Shown here in pieces: positions 169 through 20,107 of a stretch of 39,729 nt of DNA (the stretch's first letter is position 1; every line of letters begins with the position of its first letter). The DNA comes from a virus. The stretch lies in IMG/VR virus record IMGVR_UViG_3300028831_000290, positions 1 through 39,729 of that record. One strand, 5' to 3'. Below the pieces are notes generated by a model, which worked only from the letters and a program-made list of their open reading frames with translations, did no database searches and was not told where the DNA came from. The position numbers and the translations under genes are program-made.

Positions 169-1317
169 ATGCCCGAATACACCGCGGTCGTCTACCAGAC
201 CACCACCGGCCGTGTGCTCTACGACATCGACCTCACCGAGGACCCCACGTGGTCGGCGGTGCTCAACGGCGTCGGCACCTGGCAGGTCACCACGCCGCTC
301 GAAGACGCGGCCGACCGAGCGCGCTGCCGGGAGTGGGCCGAGCGGTGGTTCTGCTCGGTGGCGGTGCTCTGGGATGGCCAGGTGTGCCAGGCCGGGCCGA
401 TCACCGAGAACCCCGACGTGTCCACATCGGACGGGCTGCCTACGCTGGTGGTGACGGGCAAAGGTTTCTGGGAGAACCTGAACCAGCGGCTTTGCCACAG
501 CCGAACCTGGAACCCGGGTAGCGCCCGGATAACCAGCAGCGCGGCAGACCTCACGATCAACGACAGCTTGCCGAACATCGCCCGGGAGCTGATGTTCCAA
601 GCCACCAACATGACCGTCCGGCAAGGGTCGGCGTTGCCGCTCGACCTGCCGACCGCCGTGGCGTCGGATGCGAACACCCGCACGTACCGAGGCTACGAGA
701 TGGCGACGTTCGGCCAGCGGCTGCAGGAGCTGACACAGGTCGACGGCGGCCCGGATATCTACTTCCAGGGCTACCTGACGATGGTCTCCGGCGTGCGCTA
801 CGTCCGGCATCGCGCGCTCATCGGAGCGCCGTACCTCGCCCAGGGCGGCAACCCGCTGCTGTTCGACCTCGGCAGCTCGATGGCCGGTCTTGAGGTGCAG
901 GGCGACAACTCGCCACTCATTACGTCGGCGTTCGTCAAGGGCACCGGCAACGAGGCGGGCCAGCTCTACGGCTACGCCACCTCAGCCGGGCTCATCGGTA
1001 ACGGCTGGCCGATGCTCGACTACGTGGATTCCAGCCACGGGTCCGCGCAGGTTCAGTCCACACTGGACAGCTGGGCACTGGCGGATGTGGCCCAGTTCGG
1101 CCGGAAGCTGGAGCAGTGGAAGCCCCGCATCATGCTGAGTTCGGAGCCGAAGATCGGCACCTACATCCCCGGTCACTTCGGCACTTACGTGATCAATGAC
1201 CACCCATGGGTGCCGGACGGCAGCTTCACCGCGCGTATCCTGGGGTACTCGTCGGCAGGTTCGCAGGACGACCAACCGGCCATGATCGAGCACCAGATCG
1301 AGTCGGTGCCCACTTAG
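169..1317 (+). CDS. Minor tail protein, possibly Tal/baseplate-hub-like (382 aa)
   Basis: ATG 169 (MPEYTAVVYQ) follows the upstream stop by 5 nt. It lies in the tail module downstream of tape measure and Dit, with G/C-rich third positions. No catalytic motif recognised. Confidence 0.7.
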   Translation: MPEYTAVVYQTTTGRVLYDIDLTEDPTWSAVLNGVGTWQVTTPLEDAADRARCREWAERWFCSVAVLWDGQVCQAGPITENPDVSTSDGLPTLVVTGKGFWENLNQRLCHSRTWNPGSARITSSAADLTINDSLPNIARELMFQATNMTVRQGSALPLDLPTAVASDANTRTYRGYEMATFGQRLQELTQVDGGPDIYFQGYLTMVSGVRYVRHRALIGAPYLAQGGNPLLFDLGSSMAGLEVQGDNSPLITSAFVKGTGNEAGQLYGYATSAGLIGNGWPMLDYVDSSHGSAQVQSTLDSWALADVAQFGRKLEQWKPRIMLSSEPKIGTYIPGHFGTYVINDHPWVPDGSFTARILGYSSAGSQDDQPAMIEHQIESVPT

Positions 1318-6831: not shown

Positions 6832-7544
6832 CACCACCGCCAGGCGTAGCGCAGGTCGGCCGCCCACACGGACGGATAAGTTTGCCGGATGCGGAACGCC
6901 ATGCCGAGCCCGCGCGCCAGGGTGGCGGTGCGCTCCAGCTTGAGCGCGAACGGCGTGCCGATGTCGTCGGACCAGCTCTCCCATTGGTCGACGCACCCGG
7001 GCCCGGTCAGCCCGTAGGCGTTGGTACCGCAGGCTTTCGCGGGAGACCAGACCTGCTGGTGCTGGAAGTGCATCACCTTGCCGGAGCTCTGCTCGGTGAT
7101 CGTGCCCTCGGCGTAGAGGCAGTACGCCGCAACGGGGATGGTGCTGCGGACGTAGTGCTGCGGGCCGCCGGTGGGCAGCGACACCCGGCCGGTCCGGCAG
7201 TCGGCGGCAGCCTGCCACTCGGTGGTGGTCTGGACCTTGTAGAACGTGCCGTTGTCGAACCACCCCGGCAAGGTCACCCATTCGCCGACGGTGACGAACT
7301 GCTCGTTGTAGGTGGGCGGCCACTTCGCCGGGTCGCCCCATGAGATGCGAGATTCGGTGGTGTTCTGCGGGCTCCAGCTCCACTGGCCGGCGACCTGCGT
7401 GCCGGACCAGTACTGCCCGGCCGAGCGGATACCGGACATCGCGTAGTCGGCGTAGGTGGGTACGGTGGCCGCGGTGCTGGCCGGGGTCATGGCGAGCGAC
7501 AGCCCGGCCAGCACCGCAAGCGTGAGGGTGAGAAAGCGTTTCAT
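6831..7544 (-). CDS. Secreted Trp/Cys-rich protein with a signal peptide (237 aa)
   Basis: ATG 7544 follows GAAGGAAG. The N-terminus MKRFLTLTLAVLAGLSLAMTPASTAAT looks like a Sec signal. The mature part has four Cys and many Trp. No family recognised. Confidence 0.7.
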   Translation of the reverse strand: MKRFLTLTLAVLAGLSLAMTPASTAATVPTYADYAMSGIRSAGQYWSGTQVAGQWSWSPQNTTESRISWGDPAKWPPTYNEQFVTVGEWVTLPGWFDNGTFYKVQTTTEWQAAADCRTGRVSLPTGGPQHYVRSTIPVAAYCLYAEGTITEQSSGKVMHFQHQQVWSPAKACGTNAYGLTGPGCVDQWESWSDDIGTPFALKLERTATLARGLGMAFRIRQTYPSVWAADLRYAWRW

Positions 7545-7717
7545 GACTGGACTTCCTTCGTGAGCTGTCGCGCCTCGATGAGGTCGGCGATACCGCGCAG
7601 CATGTTGATGATCTCCGTGTCGCTGCGGTGGCTGGACCACTGCGCGCGTCCTTCGCGATCCACCAGCACGACGAGATCGGTGGCGTTGAGGCGTTCCTGG
7701 GTGATGTGCAGCATCAT
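7541..7717 (-). CDS. Hypothetical protein (58 aa)
   Basis: ATG 7717 overlaps the upstream TGA (ATGA), and its own TGA overlaps the downstream ATG 7544. Sequence begins MMLHITQERLNATDLVVLVDREG. Confidence 0.55.
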   Translation of the reverse strand: MMLHITQERLNATDLVVLVDREGRAQWSSHRSDTEIINMLRGIADLIEARQLTKEVQS

Positions 7718-7863
7718 CGAACCTGACTGTGAGGGTGGGCAGCCCCGGGACCGGGGAAGAGGTAGTCGCAGCCGCGCATCATGCCGACCACGGCGGCCAG
7801 GCCGAGCAGGAGCAGCACAACCGCGCGGCGGACGCCGTAGCGCGGGTAGGTCCGGCGCCGCAT
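7714..7863 (-). CDS. Small membrane or signal-anchored protein (49 aa)
   Basis: Not in the ORF track. ATG 7863 overlaps the upstream TGA (TGATG). Sequence MRRRTYPRYGVRRAVVLLLLGLAAVVGMMRGCDYLFPGPGAAHPHSQVR, with G/C-rich third positions. Confidence 0.6.
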   Translation of the reverse strand: MRRRTYPRYGVRRAVVLLLLGLAAVVGMMRGCDYLFPGPGAAHPHSQVR

Positions 7864-8366
7864 CAGAGCTCACCGAACAGCTGGTAAATCCGTTCCCGGC
7901 CGACGAACGGCGACGGGTCGGTCCGGCGGTGGCGGCCGCGGGTCGGCGCGGGAGTCATCGGCATCGCGGTGCCGTGCGGCGGGGTGAGCGGGTTGTACTC
8001 GTGGGTGAACAGCGTCGGCTCGCCGACCTCGCCACGGTCCACAAGGGGTTGCATGGCCTCGTGCCGGGCGGTGGCGATCGCCGTCTCGACCTCGTCCGGC
8101 CAGCGCATCGGCGTGGCGAACGTCTCGGTGACGGCTTCGCGGATCGACTCGACGCGCCGGGCGCGGAAGTAACGCCGCAGGCCGATCTCTTCCAGCGAGG
8201 TGAAGACCAGGCTGCCGCAGACGACCGCGCCGATCCAGGTGGCCGCGGCCTCCCAGGGCGAGGTGAGGTCGGGCAGCCGGAGCACGACGTAGCCGGCGAG
8301 GATGGTCATCCCGGCCACCACGCGCAGGGTAAGGATGCTGTCGGGGGCGTTGGATCGGCGGGTCAT
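7863..8366 (-). CDS. Membrane protein with 2 N-terminal TM segments and a cytoplasmic domain (167 aa)
   Basis: ATG 8366 overlaps the upstream TGA. TM segments VVAGMTILAGYVVL and ATWIGAVVCGSLVFTSL. Confidence 0.7.
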   Translation of the reverse strand: MTRRSNAPDSILTLRVVAGMTILAGYVVLRLPDLTSPWEAAATWIGAVVCGSLVFTSLEEIGLRRYFRARRVESIREAVTETFATPMRWPDEVETAIATARHEAMQPLVDRGEVGEPTLFTHEYNPLTPPHGTAMPMTPAPTRGRHRRTDPSPFVGRERIYQLFGEL

Positions 8367-8503
8367 CAGCGGGCCTTTCGCGGGTACTGGCGGATGAGGT
8401 AGACGATGGCCGCGGCCGACGCCATACCGACGCAGACGTGCAGGCCGGTCACGCCCAGCAGGGCGAGCAGGAGCACGGCGGCGGTACGGCGGCGGATGGT
8501 CAT
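8366..8503 (-). CDS. Small single-TM membrane protein (45 aa)
   Basis: Not in the ORF track. GAGGTAGACG precedes ATG 8503. Sequence MTIRRRTAAVLLLALLGVTGLHVCVGMASAAAIVYLIRQYPRKAR. Nearly all third positions are G/C. Confidence 0.65.
   Translation of the reverse strand: MTIRRRTAAVLLLALLGVTGLHVCVGMASAAAIVYLIRQYPRKAR
8393..8408. repeat. 16-bp perfect inverted repeat, arm 1 (partner 8501..8516)
   Basis: GATGAGGTAGACGATG on the + strand. Its exact reverse complement CATCGTCTACCTCATC is at 8501..8516, with a 92-nt spacer. Confidence 0.9.
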
Positions 8504-8516
8504 CGTCTACCTCATC
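8501..8516. repeat. 16-bp perfect inverted repeat, arm 2, covering the SD and start codon of the 45-aa gene
   Basis: The reverse complement of 8393..8408. On the minus-strand RNA this arm reads GAUGAGGUAGACGAUG, which is the SD plus AUG. Confidence 0.9.
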
Positions 8517-8519
8517 TCG

Positions 8520-8595
8520 GTGAACACAGCGGCCGGGGAGAGGGGACTCTCAGCCGGTGGCCCTTGTCTTTCGACTCCCCGGCCGCTGTGTTCAC
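8520..8595 (-). promoter_or_regulatory. Large stem-loop with a 21-bp perfect stem: attenuator/terminator or 5'-UTR structure
   Basis: GTGAACACAGCGGCCGGGGAG (8520..8540) pairs with CTCCCCGGCCGCTGTGTTCAC (8575..8595), with a 34-nt loop. Intergenic, with no U-tract on the minus strand. Confidence 0.5.
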
Positions 8596-8596
8596 T

Positions 8597-8625
8597 ACTG
8601 TACACCAGTGTGCAGCAGCTGTCTA
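8597..8625 (-). promoter_or_regulatory. Sigma-70-type promoter TAGACA-17-TACAGT
   Basis: On the minus strand the -35 is the reverse complement of 8620..8625 (it overlaps the upstream stop codon) and the -10 is the reverse complement of 8597..8602. It shares a 25-nt motif with 4575..4599. Confidence 0.5.
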
Positions 8626-9417
8626 CCGCCGGGCGTACGGGTTCGTCACGCCGCCCGCGGGCGGGCCGGCGGGGGCGGGCTGGCTGCGCGCCAGGATGTC
8701 CGCGGCCGCCTGGTTCATCGGCTCGCCGGTCTGCGGGTCGAACTGCGGGGGCTCCGGGTGCGCGGCCGCGGGTGCCGAGGCGAGCGGCTGGCCGGTGAGC
8801 GGGTCGAACCTCGGACCGGGTGCCGGGTGCTGACCGCCACCTGTGGGCGGGGTGGTGGGCGGCTGCCCCCACGGGTCGGCCGGGGTATCACGGCTGGGCA
8901 CCTGCGGCGGCATGGACGGCTGCTGCGCGGGCGCGGCGCCCGGCCCGTCGTCGAGGAAGCCGGCGGAAGTCTGGGCGGGCGGCTCGTACATCATCTCGAA
9001 CTGCCGCGGGTCACCCACCTTGCCCTCGCCCTTGAACCACCGGACGTACAGGTGCCCGCCCACGGCGAAGTCCTTGGCCCCGGCCTTCTTGAGCGCGTTG
9101 CGCGCGGCCTGGAAGTCCTGCTTGCCCTTGGTGATGTAGTAGTCGCGGACGCCGTCGTCTTCGTCGTCGATGGCCGGCTCCGGGCACTTGCCCGCGCCGC
9201 CCTCCCACGTGTCCAGCGTGATCGGCAGCTGCATGACCGGGTCGTTGGACTTCGGCCAGAACTTCGGCTCGCGGGTGGTGAAGTCGGTCTGCTGCCGGGC
9301 CTCGCCGATGTTGACGATCGCGCCACCGCGCCACTGGCCGAACACGCGCTTGGCGTCCTCGGAACCCCGCTCGCCGAAGCTGAGCGACTTGGAGCCGCCC
9401 TCGAAGAAACTGCCCAT
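8623..9417 (-). CDS. Hypothetical protein with a Pro-rich C-terminus carrying FDPxTGxP repeats (264 aa); a possible recombination or ssDNA-binding partner by position only
   Basis: ATG 9417 lies 4 nt after the exonuclease stop. The C-terminus contains RFDPLTGQPL and QFDPQTGEPM. No family recognised. Confidence 0.6.
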   Translation of the reverse strand: MGSFFEGGSKSLSFGERGSEDAKRVFGQWRGGAIVNIGEARQQTDFTTREPKFWPKSNDPVMQLPITLDTWEGGAGKCPEPAIDDEDDGVRDYYITKGKQDFQAARNALKKAGAKDFAVGGHLYVRWFKGEGKVGDPRQFEMMYEPPAQTSAGFLDDGPGAAPAQQPSMPPQVPSRDTPADPWGQPPTTPPTGGGQHPAPGPRFDPLTGQPLASAPAAAHPEPPQFDPQTGEPMNQAAADILARSQPAPAGPPAGGVTNPYARR

Positions 9418-9420
9418 GAT

Positions 9421-11328
9421 CTACTTGCCTTCCTGTTCGATCTGCCTGGTGCGGATGCTCGCGGCCTGCTCCAGCCGTGGCGGCCAGCCGATGCCGGCCT
9501 TGTTGACGGCGTCATCCCAGATCGCCGCGAGGTCGTCGAACGACGTGGCCGCCACGATGCGCTCGACGAAGGTGTCCTCCGGCGTCTTCACCGGTGCGGC
9601 CACGGGGGCAGCTGAGGGCCGGAACGGGTTGGCCTCGAACTGCTGCGCAGACGCCTGTTCGAGGTGCTCCAGAGCATTGCCTCGCTCCCCACCCATGGCG
9701 GGCTCGGGATCCGGCGGTACCGGGCCGGGCGCGTTGGTGACGACCGGGCTGAACGACTCGGGTTCGTCGCCGTACTCCCGTGCCACCGCGCCCGCCAGCT
9801 GTGTTTCGCTCATCACCCCCGGCTGGTTCGGCAGCAGCGTCGCACGCAGCGAAGGCCACGCGGGGTGCGCGACGATGTCCTTGGCGAGGTTTGCCCGGGT
9901 GCGGCTGAGATTGGTCAGGCCGACCCGACGCCCGACATCCTGTATCGCCGCCTTCGTCTTGAACGCTTCCAGCAGCGCATCCGCATCGAGCTCGGCAGCT
10001 GTTCGGCCGCCCGTGGCCCGTGCTTCCTGTGGGGTGGTGGGCTCGACGCGCTCGCCCTTGCTGTCCAGCGCGATGACCTTCTGGTCCTTGGACGACCAGG
10101 CCGGGTGGGTGCCCGCGTGCGGCGGCTGGACGGCGTTGCCGGTGCCGATCGCCGGGCCCGTGCCCAGCACGGCCTTCGCGGTGGCGCTCATACCCGCCGA
10201 GGTGTTCGCGTCCGGGCGGTCGGCCGGCTCGACGGGCTGCTGCTGGCCGGGCGCCTGCTGCTCGAACCACGCCTGGTTCTCCGGCAGCGATGAGACTGGC
10301 CGCACGCTGTTCGTCGCCGTGCTGATTCCGGCGCCTGGTTCTGCGGGTGCGGTGCGGCCAGTCACCAGCTCGGCTGTCATCTCCGGGCTCACCGGCAAGA
10401 TCTGCTCGGCACGGGCGACGGACATGGACACAATCCTGATGGGCTCGACGGCGGCCGCGGCGAGTGCCTTGTCCGACGGCGGAAACTCGGGGTGGTAGGG
10501 CGCGATGAGGTCCTTGCGGTTGCGCCACCGCCGGACCTTCGCGGCCAGCAGCGCGCCGTACCAGCCGGCGTGGATGTCGACCTCGTAGACGTGCGCGGCC
10601 GCGGTCTGCTCGTCGCCGACCGTGATGTCCACGACGATCGCGATGGTCTTGTCGACGTCAGGCATGGGCACGCGGTGCTGCGCGCCGGACTTGTCGAACT
10701 CGATCATCGTGTCGGCGTTGGCGTAGACGGCCAGCTGCACGGCGGGGGCGTGCGGGTACTCGACGACGCGGCCCGTCTTGCGGTCGCCGATCACCAGGCG
10801 CCCGTCCGCCAGCCGGAACACCGCGTCGAACTTGCCGGCGGTGCCGATCTGCTGGTTGACGCAGGTGCCTTCGGTCAGGACCTCGGTGATACCGAGCCGG
10901 TCGAGCTCCGCGCGGTAGCGCTCATACGTCACCCGCAGCTCAACGGCCTGGGCGGCGTACTCGTCGTCGGTCATGTCCGGCACGCGCTCGTGGAACTCGT
11001 GGAAGGCCGAGCCCCAATCGCGCTTCTCGTCGCCGCCGGACTTGACCTCGGCCTGCTCGATGATCTCGCGCCACACCCGCTTCTCGTCGAGCGGCGTAAC
11101 GGCGGCGCGGGCGGTCAGCGCGGGGCTCATGGCCACACCCTTCGCTGCCTTGCGCTGACCCCAGATCGCGAGGCCCCGGCCGTCGTCGAGCGTCTTGGCC
11201 AGGGTGGTCGCCCGGGTGTACGCCTGCTGTCCGGTGCCGTCGGCGTCGAGCAGGTAGCGCCCGTGGCGGTCGTAGCCCTGCGGATCGGGAGGCGGCGCCT
11301 CGGTGCCGAAGAACTCGCTGCTGTCCAT
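9421..11328 (-). CDS. PD-(D/E)XK (RecB/Cas4/YqaJ-like) exonuclease with a ~330-aa C-terminal extension (635 aa)
   Basis: I chose ATG 11328, preceded by GAGAGG. Motifs GKFDAV...VIGDRKTG and QLAVYA (QxxxY). The C-terminal half is low-complexity and unrecognised. Confidence 0.75.
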   Translation of the reverse strand: MDSSEFFGTEAPPPDPQGYDRHGRYLLDADGTGQQAYTRATTLAKTLDDGRGLAIWGQRKAAKGVAMSPALTARAAVTPLDEKRVWREIIEQAEVKSGGDEKRDWGSAFHEFHERVPDMTDDEYAAQAVELRVTYERYRAELDRLGITEVLTEGTCVNQQIGTAGKFDAVFRLADGRLVIGDRKTGRVVEYPHAPAVQLAVYANADTMIEFDKSGAQHRVPMPDVDKTIAIVVDITVGDEQTAAAHVYEVDIHAGWYGALLAAKVRRWRNRKDLIAPYHPEFPPSDKALAAAAVEPIRIVSMSVARAEQILPVSPEMTAELVTGRTAPAEPGAGISTATNSVRPVSSLPENQAWFEQQAPGQQQPVEPADRPDANTSAGMSATAKAVLGTGPAIGTGNAVQPPHAGTHPAWSSKDQKVIALDSKGERVEPTTPQEARATGGRTAAELDADALLEAFKTKAAIQDVGRRVGLTNLSRTRANLAKDIVAHPAWPSLRATLLPNQPGVMSETQLAGAVAREYGDEPESFSPVVTNAPGPVPPDPEPAMGGERGNALEHLEQASAQQFEANPFRPSAAPVAAPVKTPEDTFVERIVAATSFDDLAAIWDDAVNKAGIGWPPRLEQAASIRTRQIEQEGK

Positions 11329-11356: not shown

Positions 11357-12964
11357 TTATGTCCACGACTGTACAGCATCGAGCACCCGGGACGCCAGCC
11401 GGATCTGCACCGCGTCGAACAGCTGGCCCGCCGTCATCCCGCGGACGTGGTGTGCCCCGGCGATGGACGCGCGTTTCCGTTGCAGCACGGTCGGGGTGCG
11501 GCGGCGGATGACCGGCGCCGGGATCTCCTGGCGGTTCGGCAGCATGGCGAACGCAGCCTCGTGCGTCAGCCCGACGCTCACCCACCGCGGCGGCCGGCCG
11601 TCCAGTGGCCAGCTGCCGACCGACCACCACGGATGCGGGTGGCGGTCCGGGCCGATGACGAACCAGATCTCCTGCTCGGTCAGCGAGCTGAACGGGATGC
11701 CGCCGTCGGTGAGCAGGTACGGCCGGTCCGACTTAATCAGCTCGACGTCTTCGAACCCGGCCACCCGCGCGCGCAGGCCGGCGTCCGGGTCGACCTCCGC
11801 CGGCTCATCGAGTTCGTCGTCTTCCCGATCGTCGTCTTCGTCGTCTTCCCGATCGTCGTCTTCGTCGCGCTCGGGCCGCTCGCTTGAGGTCATGTCGATG
11901 GTGCCATTCAGCGAGTGCCGGAACAGCACGCCGGTGGGATCCAGGATGATTGCGTCCGTCTTGCCGGGGTCGGGGCGCAGCAGCCGGCCGACCATCTGAA
12001 TGAACAGCCCCTCGTGCACGGTGGGCCGGGCGATCACCCCAGCTGAGCACCACGGCGCATCCCAGCCTTCCGACAGCCGGGTGCACGACACCAGCAGCTG
12101 GACGTCGCCGCGGCGGTGCTGCTTGTGCAGCAGCTTCGAGTCCTCGCGTGAAGTCACGCCGTACAGGCCGCCGGTCGTGATGCCCGCGGCCTCGAACCCC
12201 TCGCGGAAGTACTGGCCCGTGTCGACCGTCGGCGCGAAGCACACACCGGACCGATCGCGGGCGTACTCCAGGTAGCCGGCCACGATGGCATCCCGCACCG
12301 ACTCCCGGGATAGCTTCTCCCCCAGGTCAGCCGCATTGTAGTCGCCCGCCGTCTTGCGCACGCCGTCGAGCTGGATATCGGTGCGGATGTACTTGCCGAC
12401 GGGCCGGACGAGGAACCCCTGCTCGATGGCCCACTCGATCGAGAGCTGAAAGCTGATCTTCTGCCACACGGTGTCCAGGCCGCGGCTGTCCGCGCGTACC
12501 CAGGTGGCGGAGAACCCCGCGCACCGGACCTCGGTCCCCTCGTTCATCGCCCCCAGTCCATTGAGGACAGTCAACCACTGGTCGCTGACCGACCGGTGCG
12601 CCTCATCGCAGATGATCAGCCCGAAGCGGCCGAGCTGCGCCAGCCGCCGGGGCCGGCACGCAGTTTGCACGCTGGCCACCACGATGCGCGCGCCGGCGCT
12701 GTTCTCGCTCGCCTTGACGATCCCGATGCTCACCGAGTTGTCGATGCGCACCAGCTTGTCCACGGTCTGCCGGACCAGCTCATCGCGGTGCACGAGGATG
12801 AGCACGCGGGCGCCGCGCCGGACATGACGGTGAGCGAGGTGGCTCATGATCACGGTCTTGCCAGTGCCGGTCGCCGCGCTCACCCCGCACCGGCGGAGCC
12901 CGGATTCCCAGTCGTGCTCCAGCGCGGCAAGTGCGTCTTCCTGGTACGGCCGGAGCTCGATCAT
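11357..12964 (-). CDS. SF2 DEAH-box helicase (535 aa)
   Basis: Motifs ATGTGKT (Walker A), LIICDEAH (DEAH) and FSATW (motif III). An acidic repeat linker is followed by a C-terminal domain of about 130 aa. Confidence 0.85.
   Translation of the reverse strand: MIELRPYQEDALAALEHDWESGLRRCGVSAATGTGKTVIMSHLAHRHVRRGARVLILVHRDELVRQTVDKLVRIDNSVSIGIVKASENSAGARIVVASVQTACRPRRLAQLGRFGLIICDEAHRSVSDQWLTVLNGLGAMNEGTEVRCAGFSATWVRADSRGLDTVWQKISFQLSIEWAIEQGFLVRPVGKYIRTDIQLDGVRKTAGDYNAADLGEKLSRESVRDAIVAGYLEYARDRSGVCFAPTVDTGQYFREGFEAAGITTGGLYGVTSREDSKLLHKQHRRGDVQLLVSCTRLSEGWDAPWCSAGVIARPTVHEGLFIQMVGRLLRPDPGKTDAIILDPTGVLFRHSLNGTIDMTSSERPERDEDDDREDDEDDDREDDELDEPAEVDPDAGLRARVAGFEDVELIKSDRPYLLTDGGIPFSSLTEQEIWFVIGPDRHPHPWWSVGSWPLDGRPPRWVSVGLTHEAAFAMLPNRQEIPAPVIRRRTPTVLQRKRASIAGAHHVRGMTAGQLFDAVQIRLASRVLDAVQSWT
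11813..11860. repeat. 24-bp tandem duplication (x2 plus a partial copy) inside the helicase gene
   Basis: TTCGTCGTCTTCCCGATCGTCGTC occurs twice back to back. On the minus strand it encodes DDDREDDE DDDREDDE. Confidence 0.9.
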
Positions 12965-19852: not shown

Positions 19853-20062
19853 GTGGTCTTCCGTAACGAGACCACCAGTAGGCTGTCTACTGGTGGTCTC
19901 GGAGTGGTCTCCGCCGGTCTTCAAGATCACTTATACGCTGTTTGACCTGCGGCGATACCGGTCTCGGCGATCGAGACCACTTGAGACCAGGGGACCCCAG
20001 GCCGGGTGGTCTCCCAGCCCTCCCCCGAAGGGGGTGGGAGACCAAGCCGGTCCCGAGACCAC
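19853..20062. repeat. Cluster of 11 GAGACCAC / GTGGTCTC motif copies in both orientations: candidate ori iterons or cos/pac terminase-binding sites
   Basis: Full 8-mers at 19868, 19893, 19904, 19973, 20006 and 20055. Near copies at 19853, 19914, 19959, 19983 and 20038. The region has no credible ORF. Confidence 0.7.
19867..19901 (+). terminator. Perfect 15-bp hairpin built from two inverted motif copies: possible terminator of the early-right block
   Basis: CGAGACCACCAGTAG - GCTGT - CTACTGGTGGTCTCG, 28 nt after the prim-pol stop. No T-tract. Confidence 0.4.
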
Positions 20063-20107
20063 CAAGCGCTGATTAGCTAAGCCTCACCTCACCGACGTAA
20101 GCCGGGC

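Follow-up and report, generated by a model that had tools for sequence, protein, structure and literature searches.

How is the first gene of a phage operon translated if its ribosome binding site (RBS) is the exact complement of a segment of its own coding region? This question is raised by a locus on the minus strand of the IMG/VR virus record IMGVR_UViG_3300028831_000290. The stretch analysed here (positions 1 to 39,729, hereafter the window) represents an entire phage-like contig of about 40 kb, with genes on a leftward and a rightward arm, and its source is an uncultured soil actinophage with a double-stranded DNA (dsDNA) genome. At the locus, a promoter is followed by a leader hairpin and by a small open reading frame (ORF) for a hydrophobic protein of 45 amino acids (aa). 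The Shine-Dalgarno (SD) sequence and start codon of this ORF can fold back onto codons near its own 3' end (Table 1). The reading that we favour, and to which we give an even chance of being correct, is that this fold-back occludes the RBS, is conserved among relatives and acts as a brake on translation.

The perfect arms of the fold-back are 16 nucleotides (nt) long and located at 8501-8516 (GAUGAGGUAGACGAUG) and 8393-8408 (CAUCGUCUACCUCAUC), 92 nt apart. The 5' arm, in the context CCGA-GAUGAGGUAGACGAUG-ACC, holds the SD sequence GAGG (8513-8510) and the AUG (8503-8501). The 3' arm runs from the last base of codon 32 through codon 37 inside the same ORF, which confirms the complement that an earlier note, made from the letters of the window, had described. 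A repeat finder extended the complement to 19 nt with one mismatch. Among the inverted repeats of the window whose loop does not exceed about 300 nt, the leader hairpin and the fold-back are the two longest. Perfect inverted repeats of at least 16 nt with a loop of at most 200 nt were present in 4 of 400 windows simulated with a first-order Markov model, or about 0.01 per window. The chance estimate of 0.002 per 40 kb in the earlier note was thus about fivefold too low, yet such repeats are still rare. An origin of the fold-back repeat by chance is unlikely, particularly since one of its arms corresponds exactly to the SD sequence and the start codon.

Folding of positions 8366-8600 (minus strand) with RNAfold gave a minimum free energy (MFE) of -141.8 kcal/mol (z = -9.9), with both helices, including the 16-base-pair (bp) fold-back helix, present in the MFE and centroid structures. 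For all predicted transcripts, transcription was assumed to start 7 nt after the -10 hexamer, which puts the start near 8590 in the window. In the window transcript that starts at this position, the SD and AUG pair with the 3' arm at a probability (P) of 1.0. The helix dominates the predicted ensemble, in agreement with the sequestration of the RBS that had been proposed. Both the sequence elements and this predicted thermodynamic dominance are established.

Relatives were collected by a search with the protein encoded directly behind the small ORF, a 167-aa membrane protein (p167), which yielded 17 homologs. Contig look-ups and pattern scans of metagenomes gave ten further lineages with the leader (L039, L042, L043, L046, L048, L049, L001, L050, L052 and L053), at 58-70% aa identity, and in an eleventh, L054, the small ORF is present on a contig without the leader. 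The p167 proteins of the relatives are 43-70% identical to that of the window. The gene order is common to all lineages: genes for a helicase, an exonuclease and a phrog_1911 protein are followed by the promoter and hairpin, the SD/AUG, the small ORF (42-46 aa), p167 and a membrane protein of 49-50 aa. In four lineages, a gene is inserted between the leader SD/AUG and the small ORF, encoding 72 aa in L046, 61 aa in L048 and 120-131 aa in L050 and L001; an extra hydrophobic ORF of 34 aa is present in L050 and L054. In the lineages with an inserted gene, the small ORF begins by a stop/start overlap with the insert. Since different small genes are inserted behind it, the leader-SD module appears to act as a portable expression cassette.

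The transcripts of the relatives were folded from 7 nt after the -10 hexamer to 20 nt past the small ORF. For the SD of the gene that comes first behind the leader, we estimated from the ensemble pair probabilities how likely it is to pair with the final 75 nt of the small ORF; a repeat of the analysis used the mean over the four SD bases. This probability was approximately 1.0 in the window, L039, L043, L046, L048, L052 and L053, and 0.74-1.0 in L049. Pairing is thus predicted in 8 of the 11 lineages, the window included; that the predicted helix recurs at the homologous position in most relatives is established. For L046 and L048, it is predicted despite the intervening genes of 72 and 61 aa, with the arms about 300 nt or more apart on transcripts of 464 and 544 nt. 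Wherever pairing is predicted, the MFE partner is located in the homologous codons 27-38, at those for I-V-Y-L-I (or V-A-L-L), and the helix has 8-15 bp in the relatives as compared to 16-19 bp in the window. The background was low: of 101 SD-like sites in the window that were folded in an identical frame of 245 nt, no more than 2, one of them the real site, had P>0.9 for the equivalent zone, and 7% had P>0.5. Shuffling of the bases around the RBS, with the SD and start codon kept fixed, lowered the mean P to 0.07-0.49. The recurrence of this weaker RBS-to-ORF pairing argues for a conserved translational brake. To judge from the folding models, the weaker pairing is probably a functional trait of the family, and the perfect 16-19 bp is a strengthening of this trait that is specific to the window.

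The letters of the two arms were also compared. In L049, the 10-bp helix is built from other letters, such that the spacer CACG faces the Val codon GUG, where GACG faces the synonymous GUC in the window. Alternation between U-A and U-G pairs was seen in the fold-back helix among the lineages. Within the 3' arm, Leu is encoded by CTC in all eight lineages (genome usage 28%) and Val by GTC in all six (genome usage 47%); the other Val, Gly and Ala columns of the small ORF vary. The spacer GAGGUA(G/A)ACGAUG is common to the window, L052 and L046, the p167 proteins of which are 58-59% identical.

Several results weigh against a conserved brake. The probability of pairing was 0.23 in L050 and close to 0 in L042 and L001, so that three lineages are without the helix; in L001, the start codon rather than the SD pairs near the end of the ORF. 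Cognate RBS/arm pairs were more stable than permuted pairs only at p = 0.037, and synonymous recoding of the 3' arm was mostly not significantly worse than the natural sequence (p = 0.075 for the window, p = 0.047 for L049, not significant for the rest). Since recoding with the codon usage of the genome is not significantly worse, amino-acid conservation and codon bias nearly fix the 3' arm, and in the 5' arm the SD (GAGG) and AUG are constrained regardless of pairing. Some changes are uncompensated, namely a Tyr to Phe replacement that results in U-U in L052, an A-C in L046 and an A opposite G in L052 and L053. Duplex energies were better than those of flank-shuffled controls only in the window (z = -4.5) and in L039, L046, L048 and L049 (p = 0.01-0.05), and no better in six relatives. 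These RNAduplex tests (30 x 75-nt segments) have little power against a GC-rich background of -16 to -22 kcal/mol, and ensemble folding of the full transcripts is more informative. In addition, the lineages are related, so that the counts are not independent, and all of the pairing evidence comes from in-silico folding of GC-rich RNA with an assumed transcription start. Clean compensatory changes are scarce, and the 11 lineages provide no proof by covariation. As to conservation in relatives, on which the earlier note had let its proposal depend, the predicted pairing recurs in most lineages and uses alternative letters in L049; three lineages lack the helix and mismatches have been left uncompensated.

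The same results bear on the principal alternative, possible though rather doubtful, which is that the complementarity is a by-product. According to this explanation, the 5' arm is kept as SD, start codon and leader and the 3' arm as part of a hydrophobic peptide with biased codons, and the two are partly complementary by coincidence. The matches GAGG/CCUC would stem from the Tyr-Leu codons and CGAUG/CAUCG from the Ala-Ile-Val codons. In the window lineage, this quasi-palindrome and the 21-bp leader hairpin would have been perfected by chance or by a template-switch (quasipalindrome-correcting) mutation; quasipalindrome correction is an established mutational process. The explanation agrees with the three lineages without pairing and with the several uncompensated mismatches, and also with the recoded sequences, which still have a mean of -28.7 kcal/mol with genome usage as compared to -34.4 kcal/mol observed. 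Furthermore, both helices of the window are uniquely perfect as compared to 11-13 bp for the hairpin and 8-15 bp for the fold-back in the relatives, as predicted for a lineage-specific mutation. However, a perfect helix of 16 bp over the RBS should strongly harm expression unless it is tolerated or used. Nor would a by-product lead us to expect pairing in eight lineages against a background of 2%, the dependence of this pairing on flanking bases that should be free to change, a spacer that is kept among lineages whose neutral sites should be saturated, or the invariance of the CTC and GTC codons.

If the fold-back is a translational brake, as we favour, it might operate as follows. A host-type promoter would fire into the conserved structured leader of an early operon. 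The RBS behind the leader, consisting of the SD, spacer and AUG, would pair with the codons for I-V-Y-L-I toward the 3' end of this ORF, the small one, and at equilibrium this helix would hide the SD and the AUG. Because the equilibrium helix buries both, ribosomes could load only on the nascent RNA, during the approximately 100 nt of transcription that precede the 3' arm, or, alternatively, while an earlier ribosome unwinds the 3' arm as it crosses codons 32-37. In equilibrium folds of nascent RNAs of 100-184 nt, the probability of being paired was 0.5-0.7 for the SD and 0.15-0.44 for the AUG, with weak and shifting partners. At 196 nt, when the 3' arm is complete, both jumped to 1.0, with a gain of about 23 kcal/mol. 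Loading that is limited in this manner would result in a short, self-limiting burst of the first cistron per transcript, and probably also of the cistrons behind it that overlap by stop and start codons. From these folding models we infer that translation is limited, that loading has a kinetic window and that the downstream genes are coupled. If true, a dsDNA phage would have a compact and cargo-independent route to brief bursts of potentially harmful membrane proteins, a burst logic so far documented mainly in single-stranded RNA (ssRNA) phages and in type I toxin mRNAs. The novelty is modest, since the regulatory principle is already known; the locus is distinctive for its cargo-independent architecture and for its invariant, unclassified leader RNA.

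By analogy, the fold-back seems to resemble the maturation gene of phage MS2 more than hok. In MS2, a long-distance helix buries the SD at equilibrium, and the nascent chain can be translated for a brief period only (PMC4615214). In the window, too, the SD and start codon are paired at equilibrium with a distant complement (in silico, P 1.0). The folds of nascent lengths suggest an SD that is half open up to the synthesis of the 3' arm and fully paired thereafter. The complement in MS2 is located upstream in the 5' untranslated region (UTR) and a metastable hairpin delays closure, whereas in the window it is located about 90 nt (up to about 330 nt in the relatives) downstream, inside the coding region, so that elongating ribosomes could reopen the helix. 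Moreover, MS2 is an ssRNA phage and the source of the window a dsDNA actinophage, and the two systems have no sequence homology.

The leader hairpin has two arms of 21 nt (8520-8540 and 8575-8595) that are 100% complementary, with 34 nt between them. The perfect 21-bp stem-loop of the earlier note is therefore present, whereas its perfection turned out to be a window-specific extension of a closing stem that has 11-13 bp in the relatives, and the supposed loop is the conserved part of the leader element. Its apical core of 30 nt is identical in 10 of 12 lineages; L048 has a change from ACC to AAC in the loop, and L052 has an apical stem of GGCC/GGCC with a loop of 7 nt and G-C in place of G-U. 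Across 12 lineages, 90.5% of the cells in the closing stem were paired and 9 of 14 pairs had changed on both sides. None of 500 shuffles reached the observed level, slid controls were 33-48% paired, and the RNAalifold consensus agrees with a covarying closing stem. The G-U pairs of the hairpin are formed on the gene-sense strand only.

An identical core with a wholly different, covarying stem (CCCGCAGGCGA/UCGCCCGCGGG) was found in another phage type, about 41.5 kb in size and represented by L002, L021, L034, L017, L023 and L025-L027, fragments included. In the DNA examined at these loci, no homologs of the neighbouring window proteins were detectable. The core of L002 (11425-11454, minus strand) is located in a noncoding stretch of about 370 nt between an operon with a Cas4-like exonuclease and the gene for a P/Q-rich protein of 387 aa, upstream of the latter. 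Scans of IMG/VR found the leader core in two contigs only. A search of the window against Rfam gave no match at the gathering threshold, only generic miRNA-hairpin noise (E 0.2-10). The core had no true match in 185,579 GTDB genomes, where nine matches differ in the middle and are without stems, and no paper was found in a literature search for its sequence. An origin of the invariant 30-mer as a phage attachment site (attP) or by mimicry of a host gene was rejected, as it had no true match in the GTDB genomes and its flanks are self-complementary with lineage-specific sequences. A peptide-coding role was also rejected. The frame for ERQGPPAESP is open in both the window and L002, the third codon positions are as invariant as the others, and the GC content at third positions in the L002 frame is about 64%, which is below the genome GC content.

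The covarying stem, the 30 nt that are identical in most lineages despite neighbouring proteins that have diverged to 58-70% identity, the recurrence in an unrelated phage type and the lack of an Rfam match make the leader a candidate for a new regulatory RNA motif, one that would add to the few cis-regulatory RNAs described in actinophages. Structured leaders at 5' ends are known from phage and bacterial operons, including 5' stabiliser hairpins and the put antiterminator RNAs of HK022. The leader of the window is like these in being a conserved, promoter-proximal stem-loop that occupies the extreme 5' end of an operon transcript and is confined to the sense strand, and it differs in having no sequence or Rfam similarity and an invariant apical segment of 30 nt. 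Candidate functions are those of a protein- or ligand-binding leader (operator, antiterminator) or of a 5' stabiliser, and the invariance of the apical domain points to a particular binding partner more than to a stabiliser of the generic kind. A more far-reaching proposal, which we put forward tentatively and consider unlikely, is that the apical domain and the covarying closing stem represent a new class of cis-acting structured RNA, common to at least two unrelated types of soil actinophages. It would bind a small ligand or else a protein of the phage or the host, for example as an antiterminator, a translational operator or a riboswitch-like sensor. Together with the RBS-to-ORF helix it would form a switch for the early membrane/glycosylation operon, whatever the first cargo gene. 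In L048 (about 2010-2140) and L053 (about 215-345), we also observed an extra, strongly structured domain of about 130 nt between the -10 hexamer and the conserved hairpin; the 215-nt leader of L048 that includes this domain has z = -5.2 and no match in Rfam.

The two helices might instead serve RNA processing or stability, which we consider improbable as the main role. The long-range helix, possibly stacked on the hairpin, would then be an RNase III site or close a 5' domain. The leader and small ORF would thereby be detached or protected, which would set the half-life or the 5' end of the message from p167 to the glycosyltransferases. Consistent with this suggestion, the leader stem of 15-21 bp and the 19-bp helix in the window are located a few nt apart in a compact domain of about 200 nt. 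Moreover, the pairing survives cargo genes between the arms, as would fit a helix that closes a domain, and the transcript probably starts inside or at the stem. Such a start resembles that of 5'-terminal stabiliser hairpins. On the other hand, the 8-15 interrupted bp of the relatives are short for RNase III, and occlusion of the RBS follows anyway if the helix forms, so that a brake is compatible with a role in processing.

Finally, the earlier note had likened the gene to hok, a type I toxin. In hok, pairing between the 5' and 3' UTRs (tac/fbi) is released by 3' processing, a leader ORF (mok) overlaps the gene, Sok is the antisense RNA, and a metastable trap prevents co-transcriptional translation (PMC9841398). 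In aapA3/IsoA3 of H. pylori, the anti-SD is located inside the toxin's own ORF, and short transient hairpins act during transcription together with an antisense antitoxin (PMC6733600). An ORF-embedded anti-SD that pairs with the SD is also found in the window; the helix of the window, however, is the stable final structure and has no evident antisense partner. The small hydrophobic peptide with its SD hidden by long-range pairing is like hok/Sok (PMC9841398) and toxin mRNAs in general (PMC9841398, PMC6733600), but a hok-kind toxin-antitoxin system, with a toxic membrane peptide silenced by the fold-back until the mRNA is processed and an antisense RNA as antitoxin, is very improbable here: there was no match to Hok/Gef or another toxin family (Pfam, PHROG, NCBIfam, PADLOC), no mok-like ORF or UTR pairing was found, a consensus scan of 7500-9500, which cannot exclude such a site, detected nothing like a promoter or terminator on the opposite strand, the gene heads a conserved operon of several cistrons that overlap by their stop and start codons, the 3' arm is located in codons 32-37 of a polycistronic message rather than in a 3' UTR, the nascent RNA (100-184 nt) has no strong metastable trap for the SD, and in L046, L048, L001 and L050 the sequestered RBS is that of an unrelated inserted gene.

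The 45-aa ORF of the earlier note is present, and its protein is conserved. Homologs of 42-46 aa were aligned from 11 of 11 further lineages, with G-V-x-G and Y-P-R-K invariant, and sequence comparison thus indicates that the small protein is a real conserved family. The 45-aa protein itself had no match in Pfam, PHROGs, NCBIfam or PADLOC. A role in a lysis cassette, such as that of a holin, was considered and is unlikely, as the operon is located in the leftward arm with replication and glycosyltransferase genes, and a cluster of membrane-protein genes follows the tail genes at 1-4 kb. The Arg codon of the Y-P-R-K motif (8372-8380, minus strand) is CGA in 10 of 12 small-ORF sequences; the codon is AGG in L049, and in L053 an insertion has shifted P-R-K, also with CGA. 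With the following AAG-G, CGA gives GAAAGG, the likely SD of the overlapping p167 gene, so that the C-terminus of the small ORF is under a dual constraint for coding and for an RBS. Folding suggests that the AUG of p167 is paired (P of about 1) and its SD mostly open. Gating of the downstream genes by the fold-back is plausible in such models, given the 1-nt stop/start overlap and the predicted pairing of this AUG.

The claim that the 45-aa gene has a promoter of its own was borne out by a consensus scan, in which TAGACA-17-TACAGT was the sole promoter match within the 2 kb at 7500-9500 (0.1 expected), with 9 of 12 positions matching. The -10 hexamer TACAGT is at the same place and unchanged in nine relative lineages and is TACATT in L052. 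The site has the hexamers, the 16-18-nt spacing and the conservation in relatives that characterize a promoter for the housekeeping sigma factor. It is part of a wider motif, GCACnC-N3-4-GTACAGT-nGTnGACAC, with five copies in the window that are all intergenic and all directed at downstream genes, which strengthens the promoter call. On its 5' side, the 21-bp stem therefore has an outer part (GUGAACAC) that consists of promoter-motif sequence. Upstream of the same -10, the relatives have tandem TGTACAC repeats at a spacing of about 11 nt that may serve as operators. For the exonuclease gene (minus strand), the longest ORF starts at 11379, inside one of the motif copies; an ATG farther downstream, located at about 11328 behind GAGAGG, is more likely to be the start.

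Table 1. Coordinates of the features at the locus, in the window unless another contig is named.
Feature	Position	Strand	Remark
Promoter	8597..8625	-	-35 TAGACA, 17-nt spacer, -10 TACAGT; -35 overlaps TAG stop of upstream 264-aa gene
Promoter-motif copies (~30 nt)	15701, 11374, 8603, 4584	-	
Promoter-motif copy (~30 nt)	20131	+	
Leader hairpin	8520..8595	-	closing stem around conserved apical domain
Apical core	8543..8572	-	GAAAGACAAGGGCCACCGGCUGAGAGUCCC
5' arm of fold-back, 19-nt extended	8498..8516	-	GAUGAGGUAGACGAUGACC; pairing probability 1.0
3' arm of fold-back, 19-nt extended	8393..8411	-	GGCCAUCGUCUACCUCAUC; codons A31/A32-I33-V34-Y35-L36-I37
45-aa small hydrophobic protein gene	8366..8503	-	MTIRRR...IVYLIRQYPRKAR; ATG start; homologs in relatives
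p167 (167-aa membrane protein) gene	7863..8366	-	start overlaps small ORF stop by 1 nt (UGAUG); SD GAAAGG within conserved P-R-K codons
49-aa membrane protein gene	7714..7863	-	next overlapping cistron, same operon; synteny kept in relatives
Inserted gene, L046	3658-3876		
Inserted gene, L048	2230-2415		
Inserted gene, L001	717-1112		
Inserted genes, L050	718-1080 and ~1080-1180		

The leftward arm of the window encodes a primase, PolA, the helicase, the exonuclease and the phrog_1911 protein, followed by the small-ORF operon and then by glycosyltransferases and methyltransferases. Past the small ORF, the products of the operon are small membrane proteins, a secreted protein, glycosyltransferases and methyltransferases. 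The terminase, portal, protease, capsid and tail genes are located on the rightward arm. Among cultured phages, neither a DNA similarity search with the window nor a tblastn search with p167 gave a match. The 264-aa protein encoded upstream of the promoter had distant matches only (32-43%), in cluster-K-like mycobacteriophages and Gordonia phages, which are of no use for a comparison of the UTR.

Two further perfect hairpins of 15 bp were observed in the window. One of them, with a loop of 17 nt, is located at 7471-7517 within the signal-peptide codons of the gene for the secreted protein of 269 aa, which is likely to start near 7544. The other, at 19867-19901, is part of a dense array of GAGACCAC / GUGGUCUC repeats at 19860-20070. 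This array is located in a divergent intergenic region, just upstream of a small-terminase-like gene (20290), and may represent a packaging site, an origin or an operator array.

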